A DNA stretch of 64,000 nucleotides from an uncultured bacterium (GCA_963801165.1 CAWDDT010000011.1:320001-384000), one strand, 5' to 3'. Counted from the stretch's first letter, positions 14,450 to 59,897 are shown. The notes: generated by a model not told the origin, from the letters alone. Made by a program: numbers and translations.

Positions 14450-14487
14450 GCCACGAGGTGGCTACCCGAGCCGCAACTTGACACGGG

Positions 14488-44020: not shown

Positions 44021-45268
44021 ATGAGGACACGTTTACGCCGGCTGGGGTTGAGCGTTGCATTGACCGCCGCCTTGGTAGTCGCCGCACCGACGGCAGCGAG
44101 CGCCCAGACAACGGAGCTGCCGCCCGGCGGGACGTTTGTCGACGACGACAACAGCATCCATCAAGGAGCGATTGAGGCGATCGCGGCGATCGGGGTGACC
44201 CTGGGGTGCAACCCTCCCAGCAACGATCGCTTCTGCCCGGAGCAACCGGTGACGCGGGCTGAAATGGCCACGTTCCTCACCCGCTCCCTAAATCTCGGCG
44301 AGGCCTCGATTCACCCGTTCACCGACGTTGCGGGCTCGACACACGAGGCATCCATCAACTCGATTTATGCAGCAGGCATCACCAGAGGCTGCAACCCGCC
44401 GACGGATGACGAGTACTGCCCGGACGAGCCGATAACCCGTGAGGAGATGGCGTCGATGCTGGCGCGAGCCTTCAACCTGGCCCCCTCAACCGACACCCCG
44501 TTCACCGACATCGCCTCGTCGGTACACGCCGCCAACATCAACGCACTTGCCGCGGCGGGAATCACAAAGGGTTGCAACCCTCCTGACGACGATCACTTCT
44601 GCCCCACCCAGCTGATCACCCGGGAACAGATGGCGTCATTCCTGACGAGGGCGCTCGGTCTCGACCCGATCGATCCGCCTCCCGCACCGTTCGATCTCAT
44701 CTCCAGCTTCACCACGCATCACGCCTGCTGTCAGACACGGGTGAGCGCAGTCCAGGCTGCTGCCCGGGCCATCGACGGCATGGTGCTTTTGCCCGGAGAC
44801 ACTTTCTCCTACCTCGACGTACTCAATAATGTGGTGCACAGCGGCAACTGCCAGACCTCCACCACCCTATTCAATGCGGTCTGGTATGCCGGTCTCGACG
44901 AGGTCGAGCACCGGCCCCACAGCGTCGACTTCGCCCGTTACCCGCAGGCGATCGAATCTACGATGATCCCGTGGTCGGTAGATCTCAAATTCCGCAACGA
45001 CACCAAACATCCCCTCGAGATCCGCACCAGTTACACGGGAACGTCGGTCACCGTGGAACTGTGGGGCGACAACGACGGGCGCAGCATCGTCGGTGACTAC
45101 ACACCGGAGCACGGCACGGTCCTCGACGTGGTCAGCGAAGGCGGCCCCGACGCAAGGATCGTTGGCACCAAGACGGTGTCGAGCGGTCGCAGCTACACCG
45201 TGACCCGCACCATCACAGACGCCGACGGCTCGGAGTCCGAGAGCTGGAGCTGGACCTACGCCTACTGA
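44021..45268 (+). CDS. SLH-domain protein with VanW-like domain
   Basis: Signal peptide, three SLH repeats, then IDG.VL.PGDTFS, GNCQTSTTLFNA, EHRPHS, DLKFRND. Confidence 0.82.
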   Translation: MRTRLRRLGLSVALTAALVVAAPTAASAQTTELPPGGTFVDDDNSIHQGAIEAIAAIGVTLGCNPPSNDRFCPEQPVTRAEMATFLTRSLNLGEASIHPFTDVAGSTHEASINSIYAAGITRGCNPPTDDEYCPDEPITREEMASMLARAFNLAPSTDTPFTDIASSVHAANINALAAAGITKGCNPPDDDHFCPTQLITREQMASFLTRALGLDPIDPPPAPFDLISSFTTHHACCQTRVSAVQAAARAIDGMVLLPGDTFSYLDVLNNVVHSGNCQTSTTLFNAVWYAGLDEVEHRPHSVDFARYPQAIESTMIPWSVDLKFRNDTKHPLEIRTSYTGTSVTVELWGDNDGRSIVGDYTPEHGTVLDVVSEGGPDARIVGTKTVSSGRSYTVTRTITDADGSESESWSWTYAY

Positions 45269-45455: not shown

Positions 45456-45495
45456 TTGACGGTGTCACACGCAAACACTATATTCACTATATTCA
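45456..45495 (+). promoter_or_regulatory. Sigma70-type promoter overlapped by a TATATTCA direct repeat
   Basis: TTGACG-N17-TATATT; TATATTCA at 45479 and 45488. Confidence 0.55.
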
Positions 45496-45497
45496 TT

Positions 45498-47276
45498 ATG
45501 GTTGATACCCGAGCCGACAGCGTGACCATCGCCGAACTCACGGTCGATTATCTGGCACAACGCGGGGTCCGCCACGTGTTCGGGCTCTGCGGACACACCA
45601 ACATCGCGGTCCTCAGCGCAATGGAGAAGAGCCCGATCGAGTTCGTCAACGTACGTCACGAACAGATCGCGAGCCATGCGGCAGACGGGTACGCACGAGT
45701 CACCGGCCGGGCCGGGGTCGTCCTGTCGCATCTGAGCCCCGGTCTCACCAACGCCGCGACCGGTGTTGCCAACGCCGCGCTCGACTGTATCCCGATGGTG
45801 GTCATCGCTGGTGACGTACCTTCTTTCTACTTCGGGAAACACGCACACCAGGAGGTAAACCTCCACTCCGATGGCGGCCAATACGAGATCTACCGGCCCT
45901 TCGTGAAACGCGCCTGGCGGGTGGACGATCCCCGTCTCATGGCCGAAACCCTCGAGCGTGCTTTCAACCTCGCCGAGACGGGGCAACCAGGACCGGTACT
46001 GATCGACGTACCCATGAACATCTTCTCCGAATCGGGCGACCCCGGGCTGTTCAACCGCCAAACGCAGAACGCCAAGACACTGCACAAGCCCTCGATGGAC
46101 GATGAAACCGCCACCGCGATCGTTCACATGCTGGGAGAGGCGGAGCGTCCTGTGTTGTACGTCGGCGGCGGCATCACCCTGGCGCGGGCCAGCGGCGAGC
46201 TTCGAAGTTTCGTCGACCACATGGCCGTTCCCGTGGCCCACAGCCTGATGGGAAAGGGCGCGGTCTCGGACGATCACCCGCTCGTCCTCGGCATGACCGG
46301 GTTCTGGGGAACGCAGCTCGTGAATCAGACGTGTCTCGACGCCGACGTGATCCTGGCGATCGGTGCTCGGTTCAAGGAAGCCGACAGCAGCTCCTGGTAT
46401 CCCGGGTACACATTCGACATCCCTCCCTCCAAGCTGATCCACATCGACATCGAGCCAACTGAGATCGGACGGAACTTCCCGGTGGAGCTTGGCGCCGTAG
46501 CCGACGCCAAAGCAGCTCTCGCCGCACTGACACGAGCGGCGAAGCGACTCTACCCGGAGGGTCGCTCGGCACCCGAAATCGCCGGTCGGATCGCCAAAGC
46601 ACGCCAGGAGTTCGCCGAAGCCAACCGTGCGGCCGCAACCAGCTCGGACTGGCCGATGATGCCGGAGAGGATCCTCGCCGACACAAGACACGTTCTCCCC
46701 GATGACGCCTTCCTGGCAACCGACGTCGGGTGGAACAAGAACGGAGTCGGCCAGCAGTTCCCCATTCTCGAGCCCGGCTCCTTCATCACACCGGGTGGGT
46801 TCGCCACGATGGGGTTTGGACCGGCGGCGGCAGTCGGGATCAAGTTCGCAGCGCCCGACCGGACGGTAATCGCTCTCGTGGGCGACGGCGGGTTCGGGCA
46901 GAACCCGGCCGTGCTGGCGACAGCCGTCGAGCACGACCTCGGAATCGTGTGGGTGGTGATGAACAACAACGCGTTCGGAACGATTGCAGGTCTGCAACTG
47001 GCTCACTTCGGTACCACATTCGGCACGACATTCCCAGGTCGAATCGGCGAGTCCCTCCCTGATTACGCCGCGATCGCCGACGCGTACGGAGCCGTCGGTA
47101 TACGAGTCAAGTCCGCCCAGGAATATCGCAGCGCATTGGAGAAGGCGATCGGGCTGGACCGACCCGTTGTCATCGATGTTCCGATGCGCAACAACCCGAC
47201 ACCCACGACGGGACATTGGAACATCCTCGACATCTACTCGCCAGAGGGCGGTAAATCGCACGCAGCAACGGAATGA
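45498..47276 (+). CDS. Thiamine pyrophosphate-dependent enzyme (acetolactate synthase/IolD superfamily)
   Basis: FGLCGHTNI, RHEQIASHAADGYAR, PGLTNA, TDVGWNK, TMGFG, VGDGGF..MNNN. Confidence 0.9.
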   Translation: MVDTRADSVTIAELTVDYLAQRGVRHVFGLCGHTNIAVLSAMEKSPIEFVNVRHEQIASHAADGYARVTGRAGVVLSHLSPGLTNAATGVANAALDCIPMVVIAGDVPSFYFGKHAHQEVNLHSDGGQYEIYRPFVKRAWRVDDPRLMAETLERAFNLAETGQPGPVLIDVPMNIFSESGDPGLFNRQTQNAKTLHKPSMDDETATAIVHMLGEAERPVLYVGGGITLARASGELRSFVDHMAVPVAHSLMGKGAVSDDHPLVLGMTGFWGTQLVNQTCLDADVILAIGARFKEADSSSWYPGYTFDIPPSKLIHIDIEPTEIGRNFPVELGAVADAKAALAALTRAAKRLYPEGRSAPEIAGRIAKARQEFAEANRAAATSSDWPMMPERILADTRHVLPDDAFLATDVGWNKNGVGQQFPILEPGSFITPGGFATMGFGPAAAVGIKFAAPDRTVIALVGDGGFGQNPAVLATAVEHDLGIVWVVMNNNAFGTIAGLQLAHFGTTFGTTFPGRIGESLPDYAAIADAYGAVGIRVKSAQEYRSALEKAIGLDRPVVIDVPMRNNPTPTTGHWNILDIYSPEGGKSHAATE

Positions 47277-47283
47277 GGCCGAA

Positions 47284-48690
47284 GTGTCGCGAGAGATAAC
47301 GCAAGAACAACGCGAGATGGTGGCTGAGATGGTCGCGAGGGCCAGAGCCGCAATGGCGGCAATCGCGGACTACGACCAGGAGCGCGTTGACCGACTGGCA
47401 CAAGCCATTGGCTGGGCGTTGGGCAACGAGGCGACCTTCACCCGTCTCGCCGAGATGAGTGTCGACGAGAGTGGGATCGGCGATCGAGAGGGCAGACCCA
47501 ACAAGCGCTTCAAGATCCACGGCATACTGCGTGACGTGCTCCGTCAACCCAGTGTTGGCATCATCGAGGAAGATCTCGAGAGCGGAATCGTCAAGTACGC
47601 CAAGCCCGGAGGCGTAATCGCATCGATAGTCCCCATGACCAACCCGGAGTTGACACCACCCGGGACCGCGATCAATGCGATAAAGGCCAAGGATGCGGTG
47701 ATCTTCTCACCCCATCCGAGGACGAAGCGGACGACCAACGAGGTGGTGCGCATCCTCCGTCAGGCGATGGAACGTGAAGGCGCACCGGCTGATGTGTTCC
47801 AATGCATTGAGGAACCCAGCATCCCGGTCGCCCAGGAGCTCATGTCGACTTGCGACATGACGTTGGCCACAGGCGGCCCTGCGATGGTCAGGGCCGCATA
47901 CAGCTCGGGGAAGCCGGCGTTCGGCGTGGGCGCAGGCAACTCGACGATGGTGATTGACGAGACCGCCGATATCGCGGAAGCGGCCAGGAACACCCGCATC
48001 TCAAAGACATCCGATTTCGGCTCGGGGTGCTCGGCAGACGGCAATATCCTGGTCGCCGACGAAATCTACGACCGTTTCCGCGACCAACTCATCGCCGAGG
48101 GCGGTTATCTCGCGACCGATCCGGAGAAAGCGCTCCTCGAGCGTGCCATGTGGAACGCTGATGGAACCAGGACTCTGAACACCGTAGCCCAGTCCGGGCC
48201 GAAACTGGCCGCCGAGGCCGGCTTTGCAATTCCCGACGATCGACGCTTCATCGTGGTGGAGCAGACCGAAATCGGTAAGGAGCACCGCTTCTCCGGAGAG
48301 AAGCTCACAGCTCTACTTGCCCTGTACCGATTCCACGACTTCGACCAGGCATTGGACATGGTGCGAAGGATCTACGAGGTCGGAGGCGCAGGGCACTCCT
48401 GCGGGATCTACTCCTTCGACGACGCTCACATAGACGCACTCGCCAGGGTCGCACCGGTGAGCCGGATGATGGTCCGCCAGCCGCAATCCAAGGCAAATGC
48501 CGGTTCTTTCACCAACGGCATGCCCATGACCTCGAGTCTGGGATGCGGCATCTGGGGAGGGAACGTCACCAACGAGAACATAAGCCTCAAGCACTACCTG
48601 AACGTCACCTGGGTGAGCCGACCGATTCCGGAAGATCGACCACCCGAGGAGGAGCTGTTCGGGGAGTTCTACGGAACCGAGGTGTCGTAG
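47284..48690 (+). CDS. CoA-acylating aldehyde dehydrogenase (SauS/EutE-like)
   Basis: IVPMTNP, FSPHP, ATGG..MVRAAYSSGKPA.GVGAGN, SKTSDFGSGCS, FSGEKL, SLGCG.WGGN...ENI. Confidence 0.88.
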   Translation: MSREITQEQREMVAEMVARARAAMAAIADYDQERVDRLAQAIGWALGNEATFTRLAEMSVDESGIGDREGRPNKRFKIHGILRDVLRQPSVGIIEEDLESGIVKYAKPGGVIASIVPMTNPELTPPGTAINAIKAKDAVIFSPHPRTKRTTNEVVRILRQAMEREGAPADVFQCIEEPSIPVAQELMSTCDMTLATGGPAMVRAAYSSGKPAFGVGAGNSTMVIDETADIAEAARNTRISKTSDFGSGCSADGNILVADEIYDRFRDQLIAEGGYLATDPEKALLERAMWNADGTRTLNTVAQSGPKLAAEAGFAIPDDRRFIVVEQTEIGKEHRFSGEKLTALLALYRFHDFDQALDMVRRIYEVGGAGHSCGIYSFDDAHIDALARVAPVSRMMVRQPQSKANAGSFTNGMPMTSSLGCGIWGGNVTNENISLKHYLNVTWVSRPIPEDRPPEEELFGEFYGTEVS

Positions 48691-48693
48691 ACC

Positions 48694-49551
48694 ATGACTG
48701 AACCCATCGAATTCTCATTGGCGTACCTGACCGTCATCGGCACACCACCGCTGCGCATGGTGTCGCTCGCAGCAGCCGCAGGCTACGACTATGTCGGCGT
48801 GCGTTTCAACGCAGTTGCCGACGACGAGGTCGCATTTCCGTTTCTGACCGATCGCAACCTGATTCGCGACTTCAAGGCCAGTCTGGACGCCACCGGTCTA
48901 CAGGTGCTGGATGCAGAGTTGATCCGGATCGGGCCCGACGACGATCCGGATGGATATCTGCATTTCATGGACGTGGCAAGTGAGATCGGGGCCAGACACC
49001 TGGTGGTGCAGCTCCCCGACCCCGATCGGAGCCGGGCCGCCGACCACCTGGCGCGGTTGAGCGAGCTTGCTTCCGATTACGGGCTGACCGCCAACTTGGA
49101 GTTCATTCCGTGGACACCGACGTGCGATCTGGCGGCTGCAGTGGACATCGTCACTCGTTCGGCGCACCCCAACGCGGGAATTCTCGTCGATACGCTGCAC
49201 TTCGAGCGATCCGAATCGTCGGTGTCGCAGCTGCGTGTGCTCTCGCCGGGCCTGTTCCGGCTCATCCAACTCTGTGACGCCCCGCGGGAGGTGCCCAGGA
49301 CGAACGAAGGTCTGATAAGAGCGGCCCGAGCCGGGAGAGGTCTCCCCGGAGAGGCCGGTATCGATCTGAGACCGATGGTGGAAGCCCTCCCCCGGGTTCC
49401 ATACTCGCTCGAGGTGCCGAATGAGGTAATGAGGAACGATCTGGGCGACCAAACCTTTGTGACGAGGGTCCTCGAAGCGAGCCGGCGATTTCTCGCGGCC
49501 AGTGACGAGCGCGCAGCCAGTGACGAGCGTGCAGTGAGCATCAGCCGATGA
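48694..49551 (+). CDS. Xylose-isomerase-like TIM barrel protein
   Basis: AGYDYVG, LEFIPW, VDTLH, QLCDA, LPGEAG, SLEVP; C-terminal ASDERA duplication. Confidence 0.85.
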   Translation: MTEPIEFSLAYLTVIGTPPLRMVSLAAAAGYDYVGVRFNAVADDEVAFPFLTDRNLIRDFKASLDATGLQVLDAELIRIGPDDDPDGYLHFMDVASEIGARHLVVQLPDPDRSRAADHLARLSELASDYGLTANLEFIPWTPTCDLAAAVDIVTRSAHPNAGILVDTLHFERSESSVSQLRVLSPGLFRLIQLCDAPREVPRTNEGLIRAARAGRGLPGEAGIDLRPMVEALPRVPYSLEVPNEVMRNDLGDQTFVTRVLEASRRFLAASDERAASDERAVSISR

Positions 49552-50003
49552 CTCGCAAGATACTGGTCCTCAACGGCCCGAATTTGAATCTGCTTGGGAC
49601 TCGAGAACCAGACGTCTACGGCTCGGAGACCCTCGATGACATAATCGCGGACTTGCGTGAGTATTCGGCCGCGCGAGACGCAGACGTCACCCACCTCCAG
49701 TCGAACTCCGAGTCGGATCTCATCGACGCGCTTCACGCGGCACGTAACAGCGTGGACGGCGTTGTGTTCAATGCCGGTGCGTTCACTCACTACAGCATCG
49801 CCTTGCGTGACGCCATCGCCGCGCTGGGTCTACCGGTGATCGAGACCCACCTCTCCAACGTTCATGCCCGCGAGTCGTTCCGGCACACGTCGGTGCTCGC
49901 CCCGGTGTGCTTGGGCGTCGTGGCCGGACTGGGTAGGGACAGCTACTTCGCCGCGATCGAAGGACTCCTGAGATATCTGACCCGACAAGAGGATCGACCG
50001 TGA
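49548..50003 (+). CDS. aroQ: Type II 3-dehydroquinate dehydratase
   Basis: LNGPNLNLLGTREPDVYG, QSNSE, NAGAFTHYSIALRDA, ETHLSNVHARESFRH. Confidence 0.95.
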   Translation: MTRKILVLNGPNLNLLGTREPDVYGSETLDDIIADLREYSAARDADVTHLQSNSESDLIDALHAARNSVDGVVFNAGAFTHYSIALRDAIAALGLPVIETHLSNVHARESFRHTSVLAPVCLGVVAGLGRDSYFAAIEGLLRYLTRQEDRP

Positions 50004-50076
50004 CCCACTCGACTCTCGCGGTGCTGGAGATGGCGCGGTGCGCGGGGCGTCGCACCAACGCATCAACGGGCGGCAG

Positions 50077-51054
50077 ATGAGTATGGGACACGTTGAGACC
50101 TTCCGCGGGCCCATAGACTCGGACAAGCTCGGCGCGACGCTGCTCCACGAGCACATCTTCGTGCGCAGCCCGGAATTGGAAGTGAACCTACCCGACGGAG
50201 AATGGGAGCCGTCCGATGCGGTCGCGACTGCCGTCGCCGGTCTCAGGGAGCTATACCGGCTCGGGATTCGGACCGTGGTCGATCTCACCGTCCCAGGCCT
50301 TGGCCGCGACGTGCGGCTGGTATCTCGCGTCGCGGAGCAGGTTCCGGTCAACCTCATCGCGGCAACCGGCTGGTACACGCCCAACGTGCTGCCCACTTAC
50401 TTCCAGTCCCATGGGCCGGGGCTGTCCATCGACGGTACCGATCCCCTCATCGAGTTGTTTGTCAACGATATCCGTGGCGGCATCGCAGGAACCAGCGTGC
50501 GAGCCGGCCTGCTCAAAGTCATGACCGGCCCGGAAGGCATCACGAACGACGTCGCCCGGGTGATGTCGGCGGCGGCCGTCGCACATCGGGAGACCGGGGT
50601 TGCGATCACGACCCACTCTCATCCCGCATCGCGCAATGGGCTGGCACAGCAAGCGTTCCTACAGGAGCGGGGGGTAGCGGCAGAACGAATAGTCGTCGGT
50701 CATTCCGGCGACAGCGAAGACCTCGATTACCTGCGTGCGATCTTGGACAACGGGTCGACAATCGGTATGGACAGGTTTGGCATGGAACATGTGCTCACGG
50801 ACGACCGGAGGGCCCGGACCGTCATCGCACTCCTCGAGCTCGGTTACGTGGACCGGATGATCCTGTCCCACGACGCGGCCTTCTACAGCCACGTCACACC
50901 ACCGTCCTGGCGCGCCGTGTCCGCACCGCGCTGGCGAATGGACACGATCTCCCGGCATGTCCTGCCGATGCTCCGAGATGCAGGTGTTTCCACCGACGAG
51001 ATCACCCAAATGCTGGTCACCAATCCGCGACGTCTCCTGGGAGGGACCGCATGA
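50077..51054 (+). CDS. Phosphotriesterase-like lactonase (amidohydrolase)
   Basis: TLLHEHIF, GLGRD, ATGWY, LLK, TTHS, GHSGD, MDRFG, LSHD. Confidence 0.88.
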   Translation: MSMGHVETFRGPIDSDKLGATLLHEHIFVRSPELEVNLPDGEWEPSDAVATAVAGLRELYRLGIRTVVDLTVPGLGRDVRLVSRVAEQVPVNLIAATGWYTPNVLPTYFQSHGPGLSIDGTDPLIELFVNDIRGGIAGTSVRAGLLKVMTGPEGITNDVARVMSAAAVAHRETGVAITTHSHPASRNGLAQQAFLQERGVAAERIVVGHSGDSEDLDYLRAILDNGSTIGMDRFGMEHVLTDDRRARTVIALLELGYVDRMILSHDAAFYSHVTPPSWRAVSAPRWRMDTISRHVLPMLRDAGVSTDEITQMLVTNPRRLLGGTA

Positions 51055-52022
51055 AAGCAGCAGTGCTCATCGAACCGGGAAAAATAGTGACCGACGAGGT
51101 CCCCGATCCGGAGCCGGGGCGCGGCGAGGTGAGGATCTCGGTGGGAGGAGTCGGCCTGTGCGGCTCCGATGCGAGCGTCTTCAGCGGCAAATGGAAGGCT
51201 CCGACCTATCCCTGGATCATGGGACACGAAGCGTTCGGCGTCATCGAAGCACTGGGGGCTGACGTACCGCCGGAGCGCATCGGTCAGACCGTCGTGGTCG
51301 AACCAAACGCAACTTGCTTCGACTGCGAACAGTGCCGACGGGGCTGGACTTCGGCGTGTCCCGTGCGCCAGTCGATAGGCATGAACCGCCCCGGGGCCCT
51401 CGCCGAGCGACTGGTCGTACCGAGCCGGTACGCGTGGACGATTCCGGACCTGCCCGCTCGCGACCTGGTGTGCGTCGAACCGACAACCGTGGCACAGGCG
51501 GCGCTTCGCCGCCTCGGCCCACCATCCGACCCGGCTCTCGTGGTTGGTGTTGGGGCTCAGGGTCTGATGATGACCCTTGCGCTCCTCGACCGTGGCATAA
51601 GGGTCTTTGCCCATGACGTCAACCCGGATCGGGTCACATTCGCCACCGAGCTGGGCGCACATCGAATCGAAGACAACGACACGCGGCATTTCGACCTCGT
51701 GGTCGACACGGTGGGGTCGCCACCCTCGATGGCAGTAGCACTGGATCGCGCGGAGGTGGGCGGCACAGTCCTCTGCCTGGGGCTCGACAGCCGTCAGCTG
51801 GATCTCAACGCGCAGACCCTGGTGCGACGCCAACTGATCCTGCGTGGCACGCTCACCTACGACCACCCGACGGACTTCGAGGCGTCCGTCAATCTCGTCG
51901 GCTCCGGCCGTTTTGCGCCGGGCAGGATCATCACCGATGAATTCCCATTGGAGGAGGCACAGCAGGCATTCGAACGGAGCGGATCGGCGCGTGGCAAAAC
52001 GTGGATCAGGGTTGGTAGCTGA
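51051..52022 (+). CDS. Zinc-dependent alcohol dehydrogenase
   Basis: GLCGSD, MGHE, CxxCxxC..C, VEP, VGVGAQG. Confidence 0.9.
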   Translation: MKAAVLIEPGKIVTDEVPDPEPGRGEVRISVGGVGLCGSDASVFSGKWKAPTYPWIMGHEAFGVIEALGADVPPERIGQTVVVEPNATCFDCEQCRRGWTSACPVRQSIGMNRPGALAERLVVPSRYAWTIPDLPARDLVCVEPTTVAQAALRRLGPPSDPALVVGVGAQGLMMTLALLDRGIRVFAHDVNPDRVTFATELGAHRIEDNDTRHFDLVVDTVGSPPSMAVALDRAEVGGTVLCLGLDSRQLDLNAQTLVRRQLILRGTLTYDHPTDFEASVNLVGSGRFAPGRIITDEFPLEEAQQAFERSGSARGKTWIRVGS

Positions 52023-52145
52023 TGTCGCTACCGCCTGCACCTCCGGAGCCCGTTTCGTGCCATAGACCGCATTCAAATCTTCGGAACCAGAGACTGGCAC
52101 ATAATGTCAGATCTCGTTAAGCAACGACAATCGGGAGGAGAGACA

Positions 52146-53258
52146 ATGAGCAGAGTACCTCGAATCCTCACCCTCGCGTTGGCACTCATTTTGGTGCTGG
52201 CTGCGTGCGGTGGCGATAGCGGGAGCGAGACCACGACCACGTCGGGGAGTGGCGGTGCGACGACCACCACAGCGGCTAGTGGCGGCGAGACGACAACAAC
52301 GGCGGCCGGTGGCGGTGAAACAACCACCACAGCGGCAATGCAAGAAAATGTCGAGCTCGTCCTTGCCCACAGCTATCAGGAAGGGCAGCCGCAGGTCGAG
52401 TGCGGAGCGAACGTGATCAAAGAGGTAGCCGAGTCGGCCGGTGTCGGTCTCACCATTACCATCTTCGGCGCCAGCTCCCTCGGCGGTGATGCTGACCGCA
52501 TCGAGTCGGTGATCGCGGGCGATATCGACCTCGACATCCAGGGAGCGTCGGCGCTGGCCAGCGTCTATGAGCCGATGAGCGTGGTTGACGGAGCCTTTGT
52601 GTTCGACGACAGCGACCACCTGTATCGCTACTTCACAAGCGATGCTTCCACCGCGTTGAAGGACGGGTTCCACGAGGCGACCGGCGTCCGAATCCTGGGT
52701 GCCTGGAACACGGGAGCCCGACAGTTCACCGCAAATGTGCCAATTCGTACGCCGGACGACCTCAAAGGCCTTCTCATGAGGTTCCCGCCGTCGCCCTCGT
52801 TCCTGTTGAACGCGGCTGCAATGGGCGCCGACGCGGTCGAGGTGGCGTATGAGGAGCTATACCTGGCACTTCAGCAGGGCACGGTTGACGGTCAGGAGAA
52901 CCCGATCGTCAACATCGACGCCATCAACCTCGACGAGGTTCAGGACTACATCAGCCTGTCGAGTCACCAGCTCAGCTCCAATCTTGTGATTGTCGGCCCG
53001 GTCTGGGACGAGCTAAGCCCCGAGCAGCAGCAGGCGCTCGCGGACGGTGTCGAGCAGGCGATGGTCAAAGAGCCGCAATGCTCTGCGGACGCTGAGCAGC
53101 AGATCCTCGCCGGCTGGCGCGACAGCGGCGCACTCGAGATCGTCGACGACGTCGACCGTGCGGCGTTCCGCGACAAGGTCGAGCCCTATCTACGGGACCA
53201 CTACAACGCAGACCAGATCGCAGTCCTGGAGGCGATCCGTTCCACGGCCAACGGATAA
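52146..53258 (+). CDS. dctP: TRAP transporter substrate-binding lipoprotein
   Basis: LAAC lipobox, Thr-rich linker repeats, PDDLKGL.MR, ELYLALQQGTVDGQENP. Confidence 0.9.
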   Translation: MSRVPRILTLALALILVLAACGGDSGSETTTTSGSGGATTTTAASGGETTTTAAGGGETTTTAAMQENVELVLAHSYQEGQPQVECGANVIKEVAESAGVGLTITIFGASSLGGDADRIESVIAGDIDLDIQGASALASVYEPMSVVDGAFVFDDSDHLYRYFTSDASTALKDGFHEATGVRILGAWNTGARQFTANVPIRTPDDLKGLLMRFPPSPSFLLNAAAMGADAVEVAYEELYLALQQGTVDGQENPIVNIDAINLDEVQDYISLSSHQLSSNLVIVGPVWDELSPEQQQALADGVEQAMVKEPQCSADAEQQILAGWRDSGALEIVDDVDRAAFRDKVEPYLRDHYNADQIAVLEAIRSTANG

Positions 53259-53267
53259 ACAACGGCA

Positions 53268-53295
53268 GCCGGTGCCCGGGTACCCGGGCACCGGC
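53268..53295. other. 28-bp perfect palindrome after dctP (mRNA hairpin)
   Basis: GCCGGTGCCCGGGTACCCGGGCACCGGC is its own reverse complement. Confidence 0.75.
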
Positions 53296-53372
53296 CTCGC
53301 CATCCGCCCGGCCTGTGCCCGACACGGCAGCGTTGACTACTGTCGCCACACTCGTAGGAGGATGAGATTCTG

Positions 53373-53969
53373 ATGTCCCCGCCCAACGGCCTCGAACCCG
53401 ACCACGAAAACCCGGCAGACGAGTACCAGTCTCTCGCAAACATGGAGCACCCGGAGCTACTGCCGGCGCGCGAACCGATGCGCAGAATCTTCCATGGAAT
53501 TGGAGTGATCGAGCAGGCGCTCGGCTCGCTGCTCCTGTTGGTGATCCTCTTTCTAGTTTTGACGCAAGTCGCCCAGCGCTACATCCCCGGAAGATGGCTG
53601 TGGAGCGGCGAGGTCGCTCGCTATGCCCTTGTGTGGGGCACATTTCTCATGGCCGGCTACCTAATGGCTAATCACCCGTATCACATCGCAATTCACGTCG
53701 TGGACAACGTGGTGGGCGAGCGAACGCTGGCCGTGATCAAGTTTCTGGTCAATATGGTGATCCTGCTGACCACCGTCGCCCTGTTGTACGGCAACATCGA
53801 CCTGGTAGTGAACGACATCGGGCAGGTGACGCCCGCAGCACAGATGCCGCTACGGATCGTCAACATGGTACCGCTGACCGGCCTCGTCTTGATCGTGCTG
53901 CGTGTCGTTCTCGGAATCGTGGTTGAAGACGTGCCAGCCCTCGTCAGGCGCAAGGAGAAAACAACATGA
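53373..53969 (+). CDS. dctQ: TRAP transporter small permease
   Basis: QV..RY..WSGEVARY..VW, HI, four TM helices. Confidence 0.85.
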   Translation: MSPPNGLEPDHENPADEYQSLANMEHPELLPAREPMRRIFHGIGVIEQALGSLLLLVILFLVLTQVAQRYIPGRWLWSGEVARYALVWGTFLMAGYLMANHPYHIAIHVVDNVVGERTLAVIKFLVNMVILLTTVALLYGNIDLVVNDIGQVTPAAQMPLRIVNMVPLTGLVLIVLRVVLGIVVEDVPALVRRKEKTT

Positions 53970-55240
53970 GCCTGGCACTATTACTCATCGCCATATTCGC
54001 GCTGTTCCTCCTGCGCGTCCCGATGGCGTTTGCAATCCTCGGCCCGTCCGTCATCTACTTGCTGGTCAAGGGCTACTCGACGCATCTAGCCATTCGACTC
54101 GTCATGCAGGGAATCAACAGCTGGCCGCTGCTGGCGGTTCCGCTCTTCATCCTGGTAGGGATGATCGCAACCCGGACGGAAATCGCCGACAGGTTGTTCG
54201 ACGCCGCATTGCTGCTACTTGGACCGCTGCGTGCCGGGCTGGCTTACGTCAACGTCGGCGTCAGCTTCGGCTTTTCCTGGATGAGCGGGGCCTCGCTGGC
54301 AGATGTCGCGGGCATCGGAGCTATCGAGGTCGACCAGATGCGCAAGAAGGGCTACCCGGAGTATTTCTCGGTCGGCTTGACTGCCAGTTCTGCGCTGATC
54401 AGCCCCATCATGCCTCCGAGCATCCCGGCGATCATCTTCGCATCGATTGGTGCTGTGTCCACAGGGGCTCTTTTCGCCGCCGCAGTCCTTCCGGCCATCC
54501 TCATGACCATCGCCCTGTCGATAACGATCTACTTCTGGGCAAGAAACAAACCGGAGTTCGTCGGAGAGCCGTACAACTTCACCGAACTGCGGCGCGCAGT
54601 GAGGCGTGCGCTCCCCGCATTGGGTGCGCCGGTCATCATCCTCGGCGGGATTCTCGGTGGCTACTTCACCCCCACCGAAGCGGCTGGGGTGGGTGCGCTC
54701 TACATGCTGATACTGGCAGCGTCCTATGGGTCCTTGCGCCTTCAGCAGCTGGCGGCCATCTTCCGCGACGCGGCGGTGATCAGCGCTCAGATCATGCTCA
54801 TCATCGGAGCATCTGCGCTGCTCAGCTGGGTTCTCGCTCGCGAGCAGGGGCCCCAGAAGATCGCCGAGGCCTTGCTCGGGCTGACCGACAACCCCTATGT
54901 GTTCCTGTTCATCGTGAACATCCTGCTGCTCCTCCTCGGTATGGTGCTCGAGCCAAGCTCGGCACTGGTCATCATCACACCTATCCTGTTGCCGGTGGCG
55001 ATCCAATTCGGCATCGACCCGCTGCAATTCGGGGTGATCGTCATCCTCAACCTGATGGTCGGGCTCATGACGCCACCGATGGGCGGTGTGATCTTCGTGC
55101 TCAGCTCGGTCACCGGGATTCCCATCGAGCGATGTTTCCGCGGGGCGGCGTTCTTCCTGCCGGTCATGATCGTGGTCCTGTTGCTCGTAACGTACATATC
55201 GCCGCTCACGACGTGGCTCCCGACGGCGGTCGGGCTGTGA
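53966..55240 (+). CDS. dctM: TRAP transporter large permease
   Basis: LLAVPLFIL, SGASLAD, IMPPSI, FTPTEA, GLMTPPMG. Confidence 0.92.
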   Translation: MSLALLLIAIFALFLLRVPMAFAILGPSVIYLLVKGYSTHLAIRLVMQGINSWPLLAVPLFILVGMIATRTEIADRLFDAALLLLGPLRAGLAYVNVGVSFGFSWMSGASLADVAGIGAIEVDQMRKKGYPEYFSVGLTASSALISPIMPPSIPAIIFASIGAVSTGALFAAAVLPAILMTIALSITIYFWARNKPEFVGEPYNFTELRRAVRRALPALGAPVIILGGILGGYFTPTEAAGVGALYMLILAASYGSLRLQQLAAIFRDAAVISAQIMLIIGASALLSWVLAREQGPQKIAEALLGLTDNPYVFLFIVNILLLLLGMVLEPSSALVIITPILLPVAIQFGIDPLQFGVIVILNLMVGLMTPPMGGVIFVLSSVTGIPIERCFRGAAFFLPVMIVVLLLVTYISPLTTWLPTAVGL

Positions 55241-55259
55241 GAAGGGTGGTTGTCAACCT

Positions 55260-56126
55260 ATGACGAATCGATCGGACGCAAGCTCCGCCCACCAGGGGAC
55301 GCCGACCGGGCAGGCCCACAAAGCGACATCCTGGTCAACAGCCATCACCGCGACCACCGATGATCGCGTCTTCGTACGCGGTGTGGCGCTTGATGAAGCG
55401 ATCGGCCACGAGCACTTCCCCGCAATGCTCCTCCGGCTGTGGCGTGGCGACTCGGCAACGCGGCAAGAGGCAGACCTGTTGGACGCCTGCCTGGTCGCGG
55501 CAATCGACCACGGCCCGCTGTCGCCCTCAGCGCTCGTGACTCGCACGATCGCCTCGACCCGGGCGGCCCCCATGAGTGGGCTGGCAGGCGGCATCCTCAC
55601 GTTCACAGAATTCCACGGCGCCGCAGTCACGATGGCAATGCGGATACTCGCCACCGCCCCGACAGAGGAGGAATTGACAGAGGGCGCATTGACAGAGGGG
55701 AAATTGGATGACTGGGCGAACGAGGTGTTCAACGCCGAGCGTGCAGCCGGTCGGCGCCTCCCCGGCATCGGACACCGCTGGCACCACCACGACCTACGAT
55801 CAGAACGGCTATTGGAGATTGCGGCACAGATGTCCGACGGCACGTGTGAAGCTGCGGAGCGGGCATTGGCCGCCAGAGTCAGCCACCACACTGGGAAACC
55901 GACACCGATCAACATCGACGGAGCCCTGGCGGTTGCGCTCACCGCGCTTCGTCTCGATCCGGACTACGGCGACTTTCTCTTTGCCATCGCCAGGGCGTTC
56001 GGGCTGGCGGCTCATTACGTCGAGGAGCGGACGCGGCAACGACCGATGCGCACGATCGATCCAACGATCGCCGAGTACGACGGGATCGCGATACCCCGGC
56101 ATCAATCTGAAGACACAGAGCAGTGA
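55260..56126 (+). CDS. Citryl-CoA lyase / citrate synthase family protein
   Basis: WSTAI, DHG..SPS, HGAA, PGIGH..H..D.R, NIDG, ARAFGLAAH..EE. Confidence 0.82.
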   Translation: MTNRSDASSAHQGTPTGQAHKATSWSTAITATTDDRVFVRGVALDEAIGHEHFPAMLLRLWRGDSATRQEADLLDACLVAAIDHGPLSPSALVTRTIASTRAAPMSGLAGGILTFTEFHGAAVTMAMRILATAPTEEELTEGALTEGKLDDWANEVFNAERAAGRRLPGIGHRWHHHDLRSERLLEIAAQMSDGTCEAAERALAARVSHHTGKPTPINIDGALAVALTALRLDPDYGDFLFAIARAFGLAAHYVEERTRQRPMRTIDPTIAEYDGIAIPRHQSEDTEQ

Positions 56127-56220
56127 TCGCCCCGGTGTGCGCGTGGGGTGTGCTGTTCGCGTCCTCGTAGCGAGCCACTGCTGCGGCTGCCCCGCTATCC
56201 AGACCCGGTACGCTGGTGCC

Positions 56221-57828
56221 ATGACGCCCGACCACAACCTGATTCTCACCGGATTCATGGGTACCGGCAAGACCACCGTCGGCCAGGAGTTGGCCCCGCG
56301 ACTCGGTATGGAGTTCGTGGACACAGACGAGATGATCGAGTCGCGCTACGGGCCTATCGCAACGATCTTCGCCGAGCACGGGGAGGCCCGATTCCGCGAA
56401 TTGGAGGCGCAGCTGGCGAGGGAGCTCGGACAGCGACGAGGGCTGGTGATCGCGACGGGCGGGCGGATGATTCTGGATCCGGCGAATTTCAAGGAATTGA
56501 GCCGCAACGGGCGAATCTTCTGTCTTGTGGCGACACCGGATGAGATCCACAACAGGATCATCACGGACCAGGATCGACCGGATAGACCGCTGCTCCAGGT
56601 CGACGACCCTCGCCAACGGATCATCGAGCTGATGACCGAACGACATCACGAGTACCAGCGATTCCCCCAGCTGATCACCGACCATGGAGGACCGGACGCA
56701 ATCGCCCAGGAGGTTGCCGAGCTATGGCATGGCCACAGCAGCTATACCGTCTCCAGCCCGGGGGGTGGCTACGCATACACGGTCGGTGCCGGCATCCTGC
56801 CGTTCGTTCGCCAGCTGGCGTCTATTGGCGGGCCGATGGTCGTGATCACCGATGAACGGGTTGCAGAGCTCTATCAGGCGAGCCTCGGAGAGATCGACGT
56901 CGCGGTCGTCCTTCCTGCGGGACGCGCCAGCAAAACCATCACATCGGTCCAAGCGGTTTACCGAAAGCTCCTCGCGGCGGGTGTAGACAAGTCGGCGACA
57001 GTCGTGTCGCTGGGCACGAGCATTATCGGTGACGTGGCCGGATTTGCTGCGGCTACCTATCTACGGGGCCTGGATCTTGTCCACTGCCCTACGAATCTGA
57101 TCGCGATGGTCGACACAAGCGTCGGCGGCAAGGTGGGGCTCGACGTTCCGCAAGGAAGGAACCTGATCGGGCTGTACAAACAACCTAAGGCAGTACTAGC
57201 GGATGTCGGCACTCTGCAGACTCTGCCGAGACGAGACTTTGCGTCTGGACTCGCAGAGGTGATCAAGCATGGCCTGGTCGCAAGCAGCTCGCTGCTCGAC
57301 CGTATCGAAGAGGCATCATGGGCCGATACCCCACAGCTGCTACCCGGGATGCTCACCGATATGCAGTCGCTGGTAGCCCAGGCCATCCAGATCAAGATTG
57401 CGATAGTGCAGGAAGACCCCTTCGAAGAGCGCGAACGAAGGACGGTGTTGAATCTGGGGCACACATTCGCCTACGGGATCGAACACGCCTCGAAAGGCGA
57501 GATCAACCACGGCGAAGCGGTGGCCATGGGACTCGTCGCCGCATCACGGCTGTCAGCCATGCTGGGTTACGCTCCGGCAGAGCTTGCCGACCGGGTCGAG
57601 ACGATCGTGGGACACGTGGGACTCGAGCCCCTGATGCCACCCTCTCTGGAAGTGGAAGCCGTGATCAGGGGAATGCACCACGACAAAAAGAAACGTGGCT
57701 CTCAACCACGCTTCGTTCTGCTGCGTGGCATCGGTGAGCCGTTCGTTACCGATGAGGTCAAACCCGACGACGTCTCCGTCGTGTTGAACGGGCTGAGGAG
57801 GAGACCTTCCGCCTTACGCCTGGACTAG
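56221..57828 (+). CDS. aroKB: Shikimate kinase - 3-dehydroquinate synthase-like fusion (AroK-AroB), divergent cyclase half
   Basis: LTGFMGTGKTTVG, DTD, GEARFRELE, ATGG, RPLL; then GFAAATYLRG, VDTSVGGK, AEVIKHG, LNLGHT, HGEAVA.G, DKK. Confidence 0.85.
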   Translation: MTPDHNLILTGFMGTGKTTVGQELAPRLGMEFVDTDEMIESRYGPIATIFAEHGEARFRELEAQLARELGQRRGLVIATGGRMILDPANFKELSRNGRIFCLVATPDEIHNRIITDQDRPDRPLLQVDDPRQRIIELMTERHHEYQRFPQLITDHGGPDAIAQEVAELWHGHSSYTVSSPGGGYAYTVGAGILPFVRQLASIGGPMVVITDERVAELYQASLGEIDVAVVLPAGRASKTITSVQAVYRKLLAAGVDKSATVVSLGTSIIGDVAGFAAATYLRGLDLVHCPTNLIAMVDTSVGGKVGLDVPQGRNLIGLYKQPKAVLADVGTLQTLPRRDFASGLAEVIKHGLVASSSLLDRIEEASWADTPQLLPGMLTDMQSLVAQAIQIKIAIVQEDPFEERERRTVLNLGHTFAYGIEHASKGEINHGEAVAMGLVAASRLSAMLGYAPAELADRVETIVGHVGLEPLMPPSLEVEAVIRGMHHDKKKRGSQPRFVLLRGIGEPFVTDEVKPDDVSVVLNGLRRRPSALRLD

Positions 57829-57841
57829 CCCCTCGGGATCC

Positions 57842-57861
57842 GTCGGGCTTCCCCGACTTTT
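57842..57861 (+). terminator. Short hairpin plus T-tract after aroKB
   Basis: GTCGGG-cttc-CCCGAC-TTTT. Confidence 0.45.
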
Positions 57862-57875
57862 GAATATACTCAATT

Positions 57876-58763
57876 GTGATTGGCAGGTGTCAAGTGAGTG
57901 TCCCGGAGCCAGGAGCACCAAGAGCGCAACCCACGACCGAGTCGGCGGTCGACCCAACGGAGAGGTTTGACTCTGCCCCGGAGTGGATCCGACGCGTTCT
58001 CGAGGAACGCATCATGGCCGGTGGCCTGGAACCGGGGGATCACATCGGGCTGAAGGCCGACCTCCAAAAGGAGTTCGGCGTCGCCGGCCCCACATTGGAC
58101 ATGGCGCTGAAACTGCTTGCGAATGACGGTCTCGTAGCGCTGCGGCGCGGGCCGAAGGGCGGTGTCTTCGTCGCACGCTCACAGCCAGTTCTCCGCATGG
58201 GCACAAAGCAGCTGTGGGCGAGGGATGCCCGCACGTTGGGTGAGAACATCGAACTGCGAGAGGCTTTGACATCACTGGTAGGTGTGTCTGCTGCGAGGGC
58301 CGATGATCGGGACCCGACTCTGATTGACGAACTCGTTCGCCTGGCCGACCAGCTGCGCGCTTCCGACATATCGTTCGACACTCAACGGCTCATCTGGCGC
58401 GGGCATCGCATCCTGGTCGAACTCGCCGACAGCGCGACTCTCCGCTTGATATACCTGAATCTGCTGGATGCCGCCGAGTCGTTGATCCTCAAGGTCGAGT
58501 TCCCGCAAACCGGCATCGAGGCGAAGCGGGAGAGGAACCGGATCGACGCTCACGCAAACTTATTCGCCGCAGTTGCTGACGCCGACTTGGAACTGGCCAG
58601 AGAATACGGCGACATAGTGAGGATCGTGTCTCCACTGGGGAGAGATGGCCACCTTGTCACCGTTAGCGAGTCCACACCGTCTCGAATCCGGCCGAACGAG
58701 ACCGCATCTAGTGCAACCGAACCCGGCACGATGCACCGGCGAGATAACGTCAGCCGTCGGTGA
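57876..58763 (+). CDS. GntR/FadR family regulator
   Basis: LEPGD, LQKEFGVA..T...AL..L...GLV..RRGPKGG.FV wHTH plus FCD-like region; start uncertain. Confidence 0.8.
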   Translation: MIGRCQVSVPEPGAPRAQPTTESAVDPTERFDSAPEWIRRVLEERIMAGGLEPGDHIGLKADLQKEFGVAGPTLDMALKLLANDGLVALRRGPKGGVFVARSQPVLRMGTKQLWARDARTLGENIELREALTSLVGVSAARADDRDPTLIDELVRLADQLRASDISFDTQRLIWRGHRILVELADSATLRLIYLNLLDAAESLILKVEFPQTGIEAKRERNRIDAHANLFAAVADADLELAREYGDIVRIVSPLGRDGHLVTVSESTPSRIRPNETASSATEPGTMHRRDNVSRR

Positions 58764-58789: not shown

Positions 58790-59887
58790 TCACTCGCAGT
58801 CGAAGCCGACGCCCTGCTGGACACCGTCTATCACCAGGTTCGGATCGGCGGTGAGACCGGTTGCTTCAACGGTGAAATCGTCGAAGTCGACGGCAACGTA
58901 GAACCCTGTCACCCTGATGCTCCCGCCACCCGCGGCCATTGCATCGCCGAGCGTGTCTCCGAGCTCCAGCCCCAAAGGTAGCTCGACGTGCTCGGGGAGC
59001 GGCCCGCCCGCTTCGGGCTGACCGGTGCCGTCGAGCTTGTAGCGCCAGCCCGCCAGACCAAGTTCCCCGTTGCCGGTATCGACCGTCCTGATGGCGGTGA
59101 GCAACGACCCCCAGCGCACCAATCGCATGTTGGGGTCGGGCAGGAAGTAGGGGCAACTCCAGGGCGTGTCCTCGGTTGGAGGTCCCAGCAGATCGGTCAA
59201 TTGGGCGACGGTGTCCTTCTCGCTCGTCCCCAGCGGGACGTCGATCAGGTCGCCGGCCGGGGTCACGACCAGGCGCGGGGAAACGTCGAGGTGGAGGGCT
59301 CGGGCGAGGAAAGTGGCCATCTGCTCCCTGGTCACCGGATCCCGAGGACAAAACAACGTGTTATCAGGCGGATTACAACCCTTAGTGATCCCCGCAGCCG
59401 CCAACGCCCCGATACTCGCCACATGCACCGAACCCGCAATATCAGAAAACGACGCCGACCCGGCAGGCAAACCCAACGCCCGCACCAAAAACGTCGCCAT
59501 CTGCTCCCTGGTCACCGGATCCCGAGGACAAAACAACGTGTTATCAGGCGGATTACAACCCTTAGTAATCCCCGCAGCCGCCAACGCCCCAATACTCGCC
59601 ACATGCACCGAACCCGCAACATCAGAAAACGACGCCGACCCGGCAGGCAAACCCAACGCCCTCACCAAAAACGTCGCCATCTGCTCCCTGGTCACCACAT
59701 CCTGCGGACAAAACAAATCATTCACAGGCGGATTACAACCCTTAGTAATCCCCGCATCCGCAATCGCCTCGATCGACCGGATATGAACCGAGTTGTCGTC
59801 GTCGGTGAAAAACCCGGAGGCGTTCGCCGGCCCGACCATGACTCCGACAATCAGAAAGACAACTAGAGCGACGAGTCGGCTACGCAT
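58790..59887 (-). CDS. Secreted SLH-domain protein with unknown C-terminal domain
   Basis: Signal peptide, three SLH repeats (GCNPP..FCP..VTREQMATFL), C-terminal domain with two Cys. Confidence 0.85.
   Translation of the reverse strand: MRSRLVALVVFLIVGVMVGPANASGFFTDDDNSVHIRSIEAIADAGITKGCNPPVNDLFCPQDVVTREQMATFLVRALGLPAGSASFSDVAGSVHVASIGALAAAGITKGCNPPDNTLFCPRDPVTREQMATFLVRALGLPAGSASFSDIAGSVHVASIGALAAAGITKGCNPPDNTLFCPRDPVTREQMATFLARALHLDVSPRLVVTPAGDLIDVPLGTSEKDTVAQLTDLLGPPTEDTPWSCPYFLPDPNMRLVRWGSLLTAIRTVDTGNGELGLAGWRYKLDGTGQPEAGGPLPEHVELPLGLELGDTLGDAMAAGGGSIRVTGFYVAVDFDDFTVEATGLTADPNLVIDGVQQGVGFDCE
59286..59776. repeat. 491-bp direct repeat copy 1 (SLH cassette, internal 180-bp period)
   Basis: Matches 61099-61589 (offset 1813) with a single mismatch by manual alignment. 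Confidence 0.92.
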
Positions 59888-59897
59888 GCGGGTCTCC

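Follow-up and report, generated by a model that had tools for sequence, protein, structure and literature searches.

Plants and algae commonly produce quinate and shikimate. In the classical bacterial route these acids are converted by QuiA or QsuD, QuiB/QsuC and QuiC/QsuB to protocatechuate, which is then opened by ring-cleaving dioxygenases, and to our knowledge this aromatisation followed by O2-dependent ring cleavage is the only established bacterial route for these acids. In the catabolism of myo-inositol, the ring is oxidised by the dehydrogenase IolG, dehydrated by IolE, opened by IolD, a hydrolase dependent on thiamine diphosphate (ThDP), and the product is processed by the CoA-acylating dehydrogenase IolA. 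Cdh is another ThDP enzyme that opens a carbocycle, next to a carbonyl, and SauS and Xsc are a pair of enzymes from the sulfoacetate pathway. Here we describe a cluster of 12 genes, all on the plus strand, at positions 45456-58763 of a 64,000-nucleotide stretch of DNA from an uncultured bacterium (GCA_963801165.1, CAWDDT010000011.1:320001-384000) that we call the window.

We propose that this cluster is a version of a widespread, unnamed catabolic set that acts on a hydroaromatic carboxylate at the level of 3-dehydroquinate and would not aromatise it, a reading to which we give a probability of roughly 0.4. Quinate, shikimate or a closely related acid would be the likely growth substrate. A preliminary description of the window had suggested such a pathway for quinate- or shikimate-like acids. 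The link that it drew to hydroaromatic genes and its acyl-CoA lyase at the last step now have good comparative support, while its substrate and chemistry are still predictions. Family scans matched every family label that it had assigned, and together with calls of open reading frames (ORFs) they place all 12 genes where it had put them, in a single orientation. The genes are as follows, with bit scores from the family scans:

45498-47276, plus: ThDP enzyme, acetolactate-synthase-like superfamily, unnamed subfamily; three TPP_enzyme domains
47284-48690, plus: CoA-acylating aldehyde dehydrogenase (ALDH), SauS/AdhE-N/EutE-like; NF047625, 468.5 bits, cut-off 600
48694-49551, plus: xylose-isomerase-like TIM barrel, candidate dehydratase or isomerase acting on a cyclic ketone; PF01261
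49548-50003, plus: type II 3-dehydroquinate dehydratase AroQ; TIGR01088, 189.8 bits, above the cut-off of 169.85
50038-51054, plus: phosphotriesterase-family hydrolase (PTE), possibly a lactonase; PF02126, 250.5 bits
51051-52022, plus: Zn-dependent medium-chain dehydrogenase (Zn-ADH); PRK10083, 145 bits, and IolM model, 134 bits, both below cut-off
52104-53258, plus: solute-binding lipoprotein DctP of a tripartite ATP-independent periplasmic (TRAP) transporter, with a Thr/Gly-rich linker; PF03480, 204.6 bits
53373-53969, plus: TRAP small permease DctQ; PF04290, 59.1 bits
53966-55240, plus: TRAP large permease DctM; PF06808, 344.4 bits
55260-56126, plus: citryl-CoA-lyase-like protein (CCL) with a citrate synthase C-terminal fold; NF004869, 154.6 bits, cut-off 212
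56221-57828, plus: shikimate kinase/3-dehydroquinate synthase fusion AroK-AroB; TIGR01357, 307.1 bits, cut-off 305; PF01202, 129 bits
57876-58763, plus: GntR/FCD-family regulator, with an orthologue in 12 of 80 related loci

Three gene pairs overlap by 4 bases (TIM/AroQ, PTE/Zn-ADH and DctQ/DctM) and the remaining intergenic gaps are between 3 and about 115 bases long.

Conservation of a four-enzyme module

A scan of one genome per species yielded 541 relatives of the ThDP enzyme, and the locus counts given here refer to the best 80 of these 541. ORFs of at least 90 amino acids in the 80 loci were clustered, ignoring large antisense shadow-ORF clusters, and the loci were sorted by hand, using gene order and record titles, into an actinobacterial-type group (n=21) and a proteobacterial group. 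Absences from a locus are soft because many loci are cut at the 10-kb flank or at contig ends. The ThDP enzyme of the window is 71-83% identical to its relatives in Acidimicrobiia-type metagenome-assembled genomes and 68-73% identical to those in marine Alpha- and Gammaproteobacteria, which include Ruegeria, Roseibium/Labrenzia, Shimia, Nioella, Tropicimonas, Hoeflea, HTCC2255, Planktomarina, a Puniceispirillum chromosome (SAR116) and Arenicellales. In public data the family comprises at least 7976 sequence clusters at E <= 1e-100, and the best 120 of these carry only the source names "acetolactate synthase large subunit" and "thiamine pyrophosphate-binding protein".

The ThDP enzyme and the ALDH were found in all 80 loci, the TIM barrel in 77 and CCL in 68. 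Genes for the TRAP transporter were less frequent (DctM 58/80, DctQ 45/80, DctP 28/80). A gene resembling QuiC1 of Pseudomonas putida occurs in 54 loci and is absent from all 21 of the actinobacterial type; its product matches P. putida QuiC1 (5hmq) over the full length with 491 bits. Twenty-eight loci contain a shikimate-dehydrogenase-like gene (NF009201, 376.8 bits, cut-off 235), two Gfo/Idh/MocA families occur in 32 loci each and a third in 24. AroQ was found in 14 loci by ORF clustering and in 17 by tblastn, and AroB or AroK-AroB in 13. The preliminary description had proposed a neighbourhood analysis of the ThDP family for aro and shikimate dehydrogenase genes, and the outcome is positive: at least one of the shikimate-dehydrogenase-like, AroQ, QuiC1-like and AroB/AroK-AroB genes is present in 76 of the 80 loci. 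The four exceptions are a locus only 3.4 kb long (L012), one in which tblastn detects AroQ (L010) and two in which the contig ends inside the cluster (L007, L008). These last two are the closest relatives of the window, L008 ranking second after L007 with 80% identity in the ThDP enzyme.

Gene order differs between the groups, being regulator-CCL-ThDP-ALDH-TIM in the actinobacterial type and regulator-Gfo-DctPQM-QuiC-[SDH]-CCL-[Gfo-ORF-Gfo]-TIM-ALDH-ThDP in the proteobacterial one, where SDH is the shikimate-dehydrogenase-like gene. The smallest loci (L035, L037, L078) hold one dehydrogenase and the four core genes. Judged from these gene neighbourhoods, a module of TIM barrel, ThDP enzyme, ALDH and acyl-CoA lyase is conserved across two phyla together with an importer, one or more dehydrogenases and shikimate-type genes. 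Between two Gfo/Idh/MocA genes in 31 proteobacterial loci there is also an ORF of about 225 amino acids (for example L056:5664-6359) with no Pfam or NCBIfam match; it overlaps its neighbours and may be a real gene or a shadow frame.

The window CCL aligns to the citryl-CoA lyase of Hydrogenobacter (6hxp) with 108.7 bits and in this alignment keeps the motifs HG(G/A)A, GHR and N(I/V)DGA, in which the catalytic residues of citrate synthases (His, His and Asp) reside. Its Ruegeria orthologue scores 436.8 bits against a cut-off of 261, and blastp found no CCL paralogue in the window's own genome. CCL was undetected by tblastn in 11 of the 80 loci. Three of these (L053, L064, L074) hold a gene of the HMG-CoA-lyase family (NF004283, 311.2 bits, cut-off 246; the runner-up, NifV homocitrate synthase, 125.5 bits) that directly adjoins the TIM/ThDP genes, the match in L064 being partial. 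Both lyase families split 3-hydroxy-3-substituted acyl-CoA esters into acetyl-CoA and a carbonyl compound. Because two unrelated folds with this chemistry fill the same slot, the pathway probably ends in cleavage by an acyl-CoA lyase, and we regard this apparent analogous replacement as the strongest single argument for such a step. The terminal step of citryl-CoA-lyase type that was part of the preliminary description is thus backed by CCL in 68 loci and by an HMG-CoA-lyase-type replacement in three.

The longest ORF for the ThDP enzyme begins at 45456, and the ATG at 45498 is the most likely start because alignments with orthologues begin about there. The enzyme scores below every NCBIfam cut-off, its best match being 414.5 bits against 538 for acetolactate synthase (TIGR00118). 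It is therefore no member of the biosynthetic acetolactate synthases, for which the IlvB of the same genome, on contig C6, gives 779.9 bits. The IolD model TIGR04377 (cut-off 715) falls outside its best 25 NCBIfam matches, the lowest of which is 288 bits, whereas that model gives 824 bits for the genuine IolD of the genome, which is encoded on contig C5 and is 26% identical to the window enzyme. The Xsc model NF005713 gives 293.3 bits against a cut-off of 620. Assignment of the enzyme to IolD, Xsc or acetolactate synthase was dropped on these scores, and the analogy to IolD and Cdh drawn in the preliminary description does not extend, by score, to membership of either family. Among proteins of solved structure, the best matches are BbmA (261 bits), acetolactate synthases (231-246 bits) and glyoxylate carboligase (218 bits), followed by oxalyl-CoA decarboxylase and 2-hydroxyacyl-CoA lyases at about 165-207 bits; Cdh (2pgn) matches over its full length with 148 bits. 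The alignment contains an invariant loop, FGLCGHTN, whose CGHTN in the window enzyme and its orthologues corresponds to FGHGN in the genome's own IolD and PGGAI in its own IlvB. The loop His is thus common to the window enzyme and IolD; the acetolactate synthase has Gly, and a pyruvate-oxidase-like paralogue has His too. We take this position to be catalytic in benzaldehyde lyase and Cdh, and the His of CGHTN is a weak hint that the enzyme may be a lyase or hydrolase rather than a synthase. A separate 660-amino-acid pyruvate-oxidase-like ThDP fusion is encoded on contig C4 (439532-441514; 394 bits, below cut-off); its first ~120 residues lie outside every ThDP-family match and contain Cys/His motifs that look Rieske-like by eye.

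The ALDH aligns from residues 4 to 459 with positions 2-460 of the 464 in model NF047625. It appears to belong to the same subfamily as SauS and to be no equivalog of it, the SauS cut-off not being reached. Its gene adjoins that of the ThDP enzyme in every locus map. Most loci encode neither a CoA ligase nor a transferase, nor any other CoA-activating enzyme, which makes the ALDH the likely source of a thioester. An exception is L008, where a type III CoA-transferase (14084-15286), with about 245 bits to succinate-glutarate and mesaconate CoA-transferase models and below their cut-offs, occupies the slot that AroQ has in the window.

A structure model of the TIM barrel (pLDDT, the predicted local distance difference test score, 94.6; from an alignment of 24 sequences) has as its nearest folds IolI (Z 30.3, root-mean-square deviation 2.3, 255 residues aligned), Lmo2234 of Listeria (Z 30.2) and P. 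putida QuiC1 (Z 29.5). After these three the scores drop to Z 26.8, with IolE entries near 24 and AsbF at 22.9. The top neighbours of the modelled structure act on cyclitol ketones or dehydroshikimate, which indicates a fold and a neighbourhood, not a function. The protein scores 25 bits on the QuiC-type model NF042435 (cut-off 1200), and neither it nor the ThDP enzyme passes any model of NCBIfam release 20. The C-terminus of the window protein (49470-49551) has a short tandem duplication, AASDERAASDERA, that is not in its orthologues.

A putative route and competing explanations

In the route that we propose, the TRAP system would import the acid and a dehydrogenase would convert it to 3-dehydroquinate, the candidates being the Zn-ADH in the window and shikimate-dehydrogenase-like or Gfo/Idh/MocA enzymes elsewhere. 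AroQ would join dehydroshikimate to dehydroquinate and so admit shikimate. The TIM barrel may then catalyse beta-elimination of the C5 hydroxyl to give 1-hydroxy-3,4-dioxocyclohexane-1-carboxylate, as IolE and dehydroshikimate dehydratases do on their own substrates. Hydrolytic opening between C3 and C4 by the ThDP enzyme, like that by IolD and Cdh, would yield OHC-CH2-C(OH)(COOH)-CH2-CH2-COOH, an aldehyde-acid that retains the C1(OH)(COOH) centre. The SauS-like ALDH would turn the aldehyde into a CoA thioester, homocitryl-CoA, which the lyase would split into acetyl-CoA and a 2-oxo acid, with 2-oxoglutarate favoured. The net reaction would be quinate + 2 NAD+ + CoA -> acetyl-CoA + 2-oxoglutarate + 2 NADH, in which the atoms balance and there is neither O2 nor an aromatic intermediate. 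An enzyme with a citrate-synthase or HMG-CoA-lyase fold would be sensible at the last step because the C1 centre of quinate is citrate-like, a point already made in the preliminary description. The gene sets of the smallest loci are in keeping with a route that oxidises the acid once before the ring is opened.

In a possible variant, also outlined in that description, dehydroquinate itself would undergo acyloin cleavage to a dialdehyde, and the TIM barrel would act at a later stage. This variant is of the same kind as our scheme but calls for additional enzymes to handle the C5 product. Routes that reach true citryl-CoA by way of a 3,5-diketone or 4-carboxy-4-hydroxy-2-oxoadipate were set aside since they need more oxidations than the smallest loci encode, and they are possible where loci have three or four dehydrogenases. 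The reverse, biosynthetic direction was rejected given the importer and the repressor-type regulator, and given that re-closure of a carboxylate by ThDP chemistry should be impossible. Taken with all its parts, a widespread O2-independent pathway in abundant marine Alpha- and Gammaproteobacteria and Acidimicrobiia that uses a new ring-cleaving ThDP enzyme, a thioester of homocitryl-CoA type and a lyase of citrate-synthase or HMG-CoA-lyase fold is rather unlikely to be correct in our view.

Several points weigh against the catabolism of a hydroaromatic acid by this route. All of the chemistry is inferred. The 80 loci are the closest relatives of the window and many are kin, so that their counts overstate independence. 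By score, the closest enzymes to the ThDP enzyme are ones that decarboxylate 2-oxo acids (acetolactate synthases, glyoxylate carboligase and BbmA), not Cdh or IolD. The PTE and Zn-ADH, which had been taken as parts of the pathway, are not conserved: tblastn finds PTE in four of the 80 loci (L007, L008, L014, L015), always with Zn-ADH, and Zn-ADH in five, and in these loci both accompany TRAP genes. The QuiC1-like protein of 54 loci looks like a genuine dehydroshikimate dehydratase, which would aromatise its substrate. The genome of the window encodes a class III extradiol dioxygenase on contig C4 (NF009901, 428.7 bits), next to a prenyl synthase. Two further points concern the AroK domain, which is the only shikimate kinase found in this genome, and the binding protein of the proteobacterial clusters, which is akin to a protein (4PF6) whose ligand is reportedly a sugar acid, a kind of ligand that the preliminary description had named as speaking against its proposal; both are taken up with the explanations that they favour.

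The genome to which the window belongs (98% complete, 13 contigs) has no match to the intradiol dioxygenase family PF00775 and two to the LigB-type family PF02900, both on contigs other than that of the window. The statement of the preliminary description that the window encodes no ring-cleavage dioxygenase holds for these two families, which were the ones searched. No dehydroshikimate dehydratase was found in the genome beyond a 23-bit match of the cluster's TIM barrel. Among five carrier genomes of unstated completeness, those of L078 (HTCC2255 scaffold) and L047 (a 2.5-Mb chromosome) are without both families, and the other three have PF00775, PF02900 or both. Both of the dioxygenase-free genomes nonetheless hold a QuiC1-like gene, so that either the QuiC1-like enzyme gives no dead-end aromatic there or protocatechuate has another fate. 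A bypass of protocatechuate, as first suggested, thus fits the lack of PF00775 in the window's genome and the lack of both families in two of five carriers, while its chemistry remains conjectural.

The best of the alternatives, which we nevertheless consider unlikely, is that the cluster degrades a 3-deoxy-2-ulosonic acid (3-deoxy-D-manno-oct-2-ulosonic acid (KDO), DAH or a related algal or bacterial cell-wall acid), shikimate-type enzymes having been recruited for an oxygen-ring analogue, and that the ThDP enzyme, ALDH and lyase dismantle the opened chain. The nearness by score of the ThDP enzyme to enzymes that decarboxylate 2-oxo acids would fit this, and so would the transporter of the proteobacterial clusters. 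The binding protein from one of these (L029) is 75% identical to RD1_0742 of Roseobacter denitrificans (4PF6, target EFI-510239; 505 bits, Z 40), a value inside the 74-83% range among the eight closest cluster-encoded binding proteins, and after 4PF6 the closest proteins of solved structure are SiaP proteins, which bind sialic acid, at 26-31% identity. The ligand in 4PF6 is reportedly KDO. As a pyranose, KDO resembles quinate with an oxygen in the ring and an added side chain, and in 4PF6 it could be either the true substrate or a surrogate drawn from a library of screened ligands. The structure is reportedly described by Vetting et al. 2015. The DctP of the window, however, is only about 26% identical to the 4PF6-type protein and has only family-level matches of known structure, the best being 4p47 and SiaP at about 105-111 bits. 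Four shikimate-pathway families co-occur with the core, and 13 loci have AroB, alone or with AroK, linked to it in an operon. No NanA-type aldolase is among the annotated ORFs, most flanking ORFs in the loci being unscanned. We rank this explanation second mainly because an opened ulosonic acid would lose the citrate-like centre: the lyase needs a stable 3-hydroxy-3-substituted acyl-CoA, and hemiketal collapse would be expected to remove that centre.

It is more improbable that the loci combine two unrelated units, an aromatising quinate/shikimate route and a ThDP/ALDH/lyase module that handles another small acid, such as a sulfonate or a branched hydroxy acid. The full-length homology of the QuiC1-like protein to P. 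putida QuiC1, the dioxygenases of PF00775 and/or PF02900 in three of the five carrier genomes, the choice of SauS as best model for the ALDH and the 293 bits of the Xsc model on the ThDP enzyme would all suit such a division. Yet the SauS and Xsc scores are both under cut-off, two carrier genomes are without the known protocatechuate dioxygenase families, and the 21 actinobacterial-type loci have no QuiC1-like gene. The association also holds in 76 of 80 loci across two phyla and in different gene orders, each locus has a single transporter, and the genes are interleaved and partly overlapping (QuiC-CCL-...-TIM-ALDH-ThDP in proteobacteria; the TIM/AroQ overlap of 4 bases in the window).

Finally, that aroQ and aroK-aroB are housekeeping genes placed by chance beside an unrelated transporter operon is very improbable: the AroK domain is the sole shikimate kinase found and the canonical aroE-aroC-aroB locus on contig C6 has neither aroK nor aroQ, but both aroB and aroQ have another copy in the genome, 12 of the 21 actinobacterial-type loci have AroB or AroK-AroB no more than 10 kb from the ThDP gene, and none of 40 sampled same-family genomes has a ThDP orthologue (E <= 1e-100) or a close copy of the fusion.

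The aro genes, accessory genes and flanks

The window AroQ is 48% identical to the other aroQ of the genome, on contig C10. The second aroB lies on contig C6 in a canonical alaS-aroE-aroC-aroB-pepQ-efp-pyr neighbourhood (about 141750-155000), in which aroC, pepQ and efp were named by eye; aroC ends at 148588 and aroB begins at 148589. The fusion in the window starts at 56221, not at 55708 where the long ORF begins, and bifunctional models give it 262.7 bits against a cut-off of 565. A second PF01202 match in the genome was rejected as another shikimate kinase, being a gluconokinase/LarA-like fusion. Contig C3 (59733-61694) encodes a 653-amino-acid protein with gluconokinase and nickel-pincer LarA-like parts, a putative hexonate epimerase (NF052594, 474.8 bits, cut-off 500).

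Most of the 40 same-family genomes have separate, adjacent aroK and aroB genes that are 32-43% identical to the fusion; there is one full-length fusion match (35%) and no match above 54%, the best being to the kinase part. In the 12 linked actinobacterial-type loci, AroB or AroK-AroB occurs in several orientations with 55-74% identity. Ten have the fusion including the kinase part, L011 has AroB alone, directly after the TIM barrel, and L019 is cut by the contig end. Because the fusion is linked to the ThDP gene in cluster loci and has no close copy in the same-family genomes, it appears to travel with the accessory cluster. We suggest that it belongs to this cluster and has also taken over the kinase role in its own genome, which would make it at least partly a housekeeping gene. 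The view that the aro genes here go beyond housekeeping is thus favoured for aroB and aroQ, which are second copies, and qualified for AroK. The kinase domain also has an invariant (A/S)TGGR(M/L) motif in the window (56221-56740) and in L013-L018, L020, L023, L024 and L027 (the L027 piece is partial), where canonical shikimate kinases have GGG.

All three TRAP subunits score above their family cut-offs, and blastp found no DctM paralogue in the genome. Some other Acidimicrobiia loci have a Liv-type ABC system in place of TRAP, the binding protein of which has weak matches to known structures. On contig C4 (11462-13524), a second PTE-family gene (143.5 bits to a phospho-furanose lactonase model) lies immediately 5' of a divergent shikimate-dehydrogenase-like gene (~55 bits), with GntR-like and Gfo/Idh/MocA-like ORFs nearby; this may be another cyclitol or lactone cluster.

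Three candidate signals were noted in the cluster:

45456-45484, plus: promoter-like site, TTGACG, 17 nucleotides, TATATT; 10 of 12 matches, 5' of the likely ThDP start
53267-53296, no strand: 13-bp G+C-rich hairpin immediately 3' of dctP
57842-57857, plus: terminator-like hairpin with a T-run, 3' of aroK-aroB

The promoter scan found two sites against 2.5 expected by shuffling, which is not above chance and makes this site weak evidence. A search upstream of the ThDP gene for an operator-like inverted repeat found none. Genes with SLH domains lie on either side of the cluster. The four flanking genes (42247-45268 and 58790-61892) encode a GH5 cellulase-SLH protein, a VanW-SLH protein, an SLH protein and an SLH-AlgX-like protein, and the translations of the two downstream genes (58790-59887 and 59898-61892) have near-identical repeats of about 60 amino acids in common.

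Comparison with described systems

Full-text literature searches, in which mainly abstracts were seen, returned no published description of this cluster or of such a pathway, and "homocitryl-CoA" returned no papers. In the parts seen, PMC10041152, PMC5812351 and PMC5788505 give no account of either.

Carriers of the cluster include Roseobacter-group bacteria, a SAR116 genome, HTCC2255 and Acidimicrobiia. If the ring is opened without aromatisation, four enzyme families would gain names, and the route would add a fourth mode of breaking down six-membered carbocycles and give intermediates of the shikimate pathway a new fate. It would provide an O2-independent link from the shikimate pool to acetyl-CoA and the tricarboxylic acid cycle and would explain the use of hydroaromatic acids by streamlined genomes without protocatechuate dioxygenases. 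If the substrate were KDO-like instead, this would be the first gene set for that catabolism as far as we have searched.

The cluster resembles the SauS/Xsc system in pairing an acylating ALDH of the same subfamily with a ThDP enzyme of the same superfamily. It differs in that neither protein reaches its cut-off (468.5 against 600 and 293.3 against 620), that genes related to sulfonates were not seen and that the neighbours are of shikimate type. The binding protein of the proteobacterial clusters shares 75% identity with RD1_0742 (4PF6), whereas the window DctP is about 26% identical to this type. With 6hxp and the citrate-synthase-like module of ATP-citrate lyase, the window CCL shares fold, length and three motifs. 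Unlike them, it is encoded in a catabolic operon without succinyl-CoA-synthetase-like partners, scores below NCBIfam cut-offs and has as its predicted substrate an analogue of citryl-CoA. Cdh (2pgn) belongs to the same superfamily as the ThDP enzyme and matches it over the full length (148 bits), but is far from its best match.

The classical quinate/shikimate route has in common with these loci dehydroquinase, shikimate-dehydrogenase-like and QuiC1-like genes beside an importer and a regulator. In Corynebacterium, qsuC is a biosynthetic gene that lies in a catabolic cluster as the sole copy, and the window AroK is likewise a biosynthetic gene in a catabolic cluster and the only copy. The window differs from the classical route in that its TIM barrel falls far short of the QuiC-type cut-off (25 bits against 1200), its genome has no intradiol dioxygenase, and the four conserved enzymes have no role in that route.

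The catabolism of myo-inositol differs in that the window ThDP enzyme is no IolD, the ALDH is of SauS/AdhE-N type and not of IolA type, an acyl-CoA lyase is added and the neighbours are shikimate-pathway rather than iol genes. The two systems are alike in the steps proposed here, with oxidation of a ring hydroxyl, dehydration by a PF01261 protein to a 1,2-dione, ring opening by a ThDP enzyme and a CoA-acylating ALDH. They are also alike in the IolG-like Gfo/Idh/MocA genes found in many proteobacterial loci and in the loop His that the ThDP enzyme shares with the IolD of its own genome.

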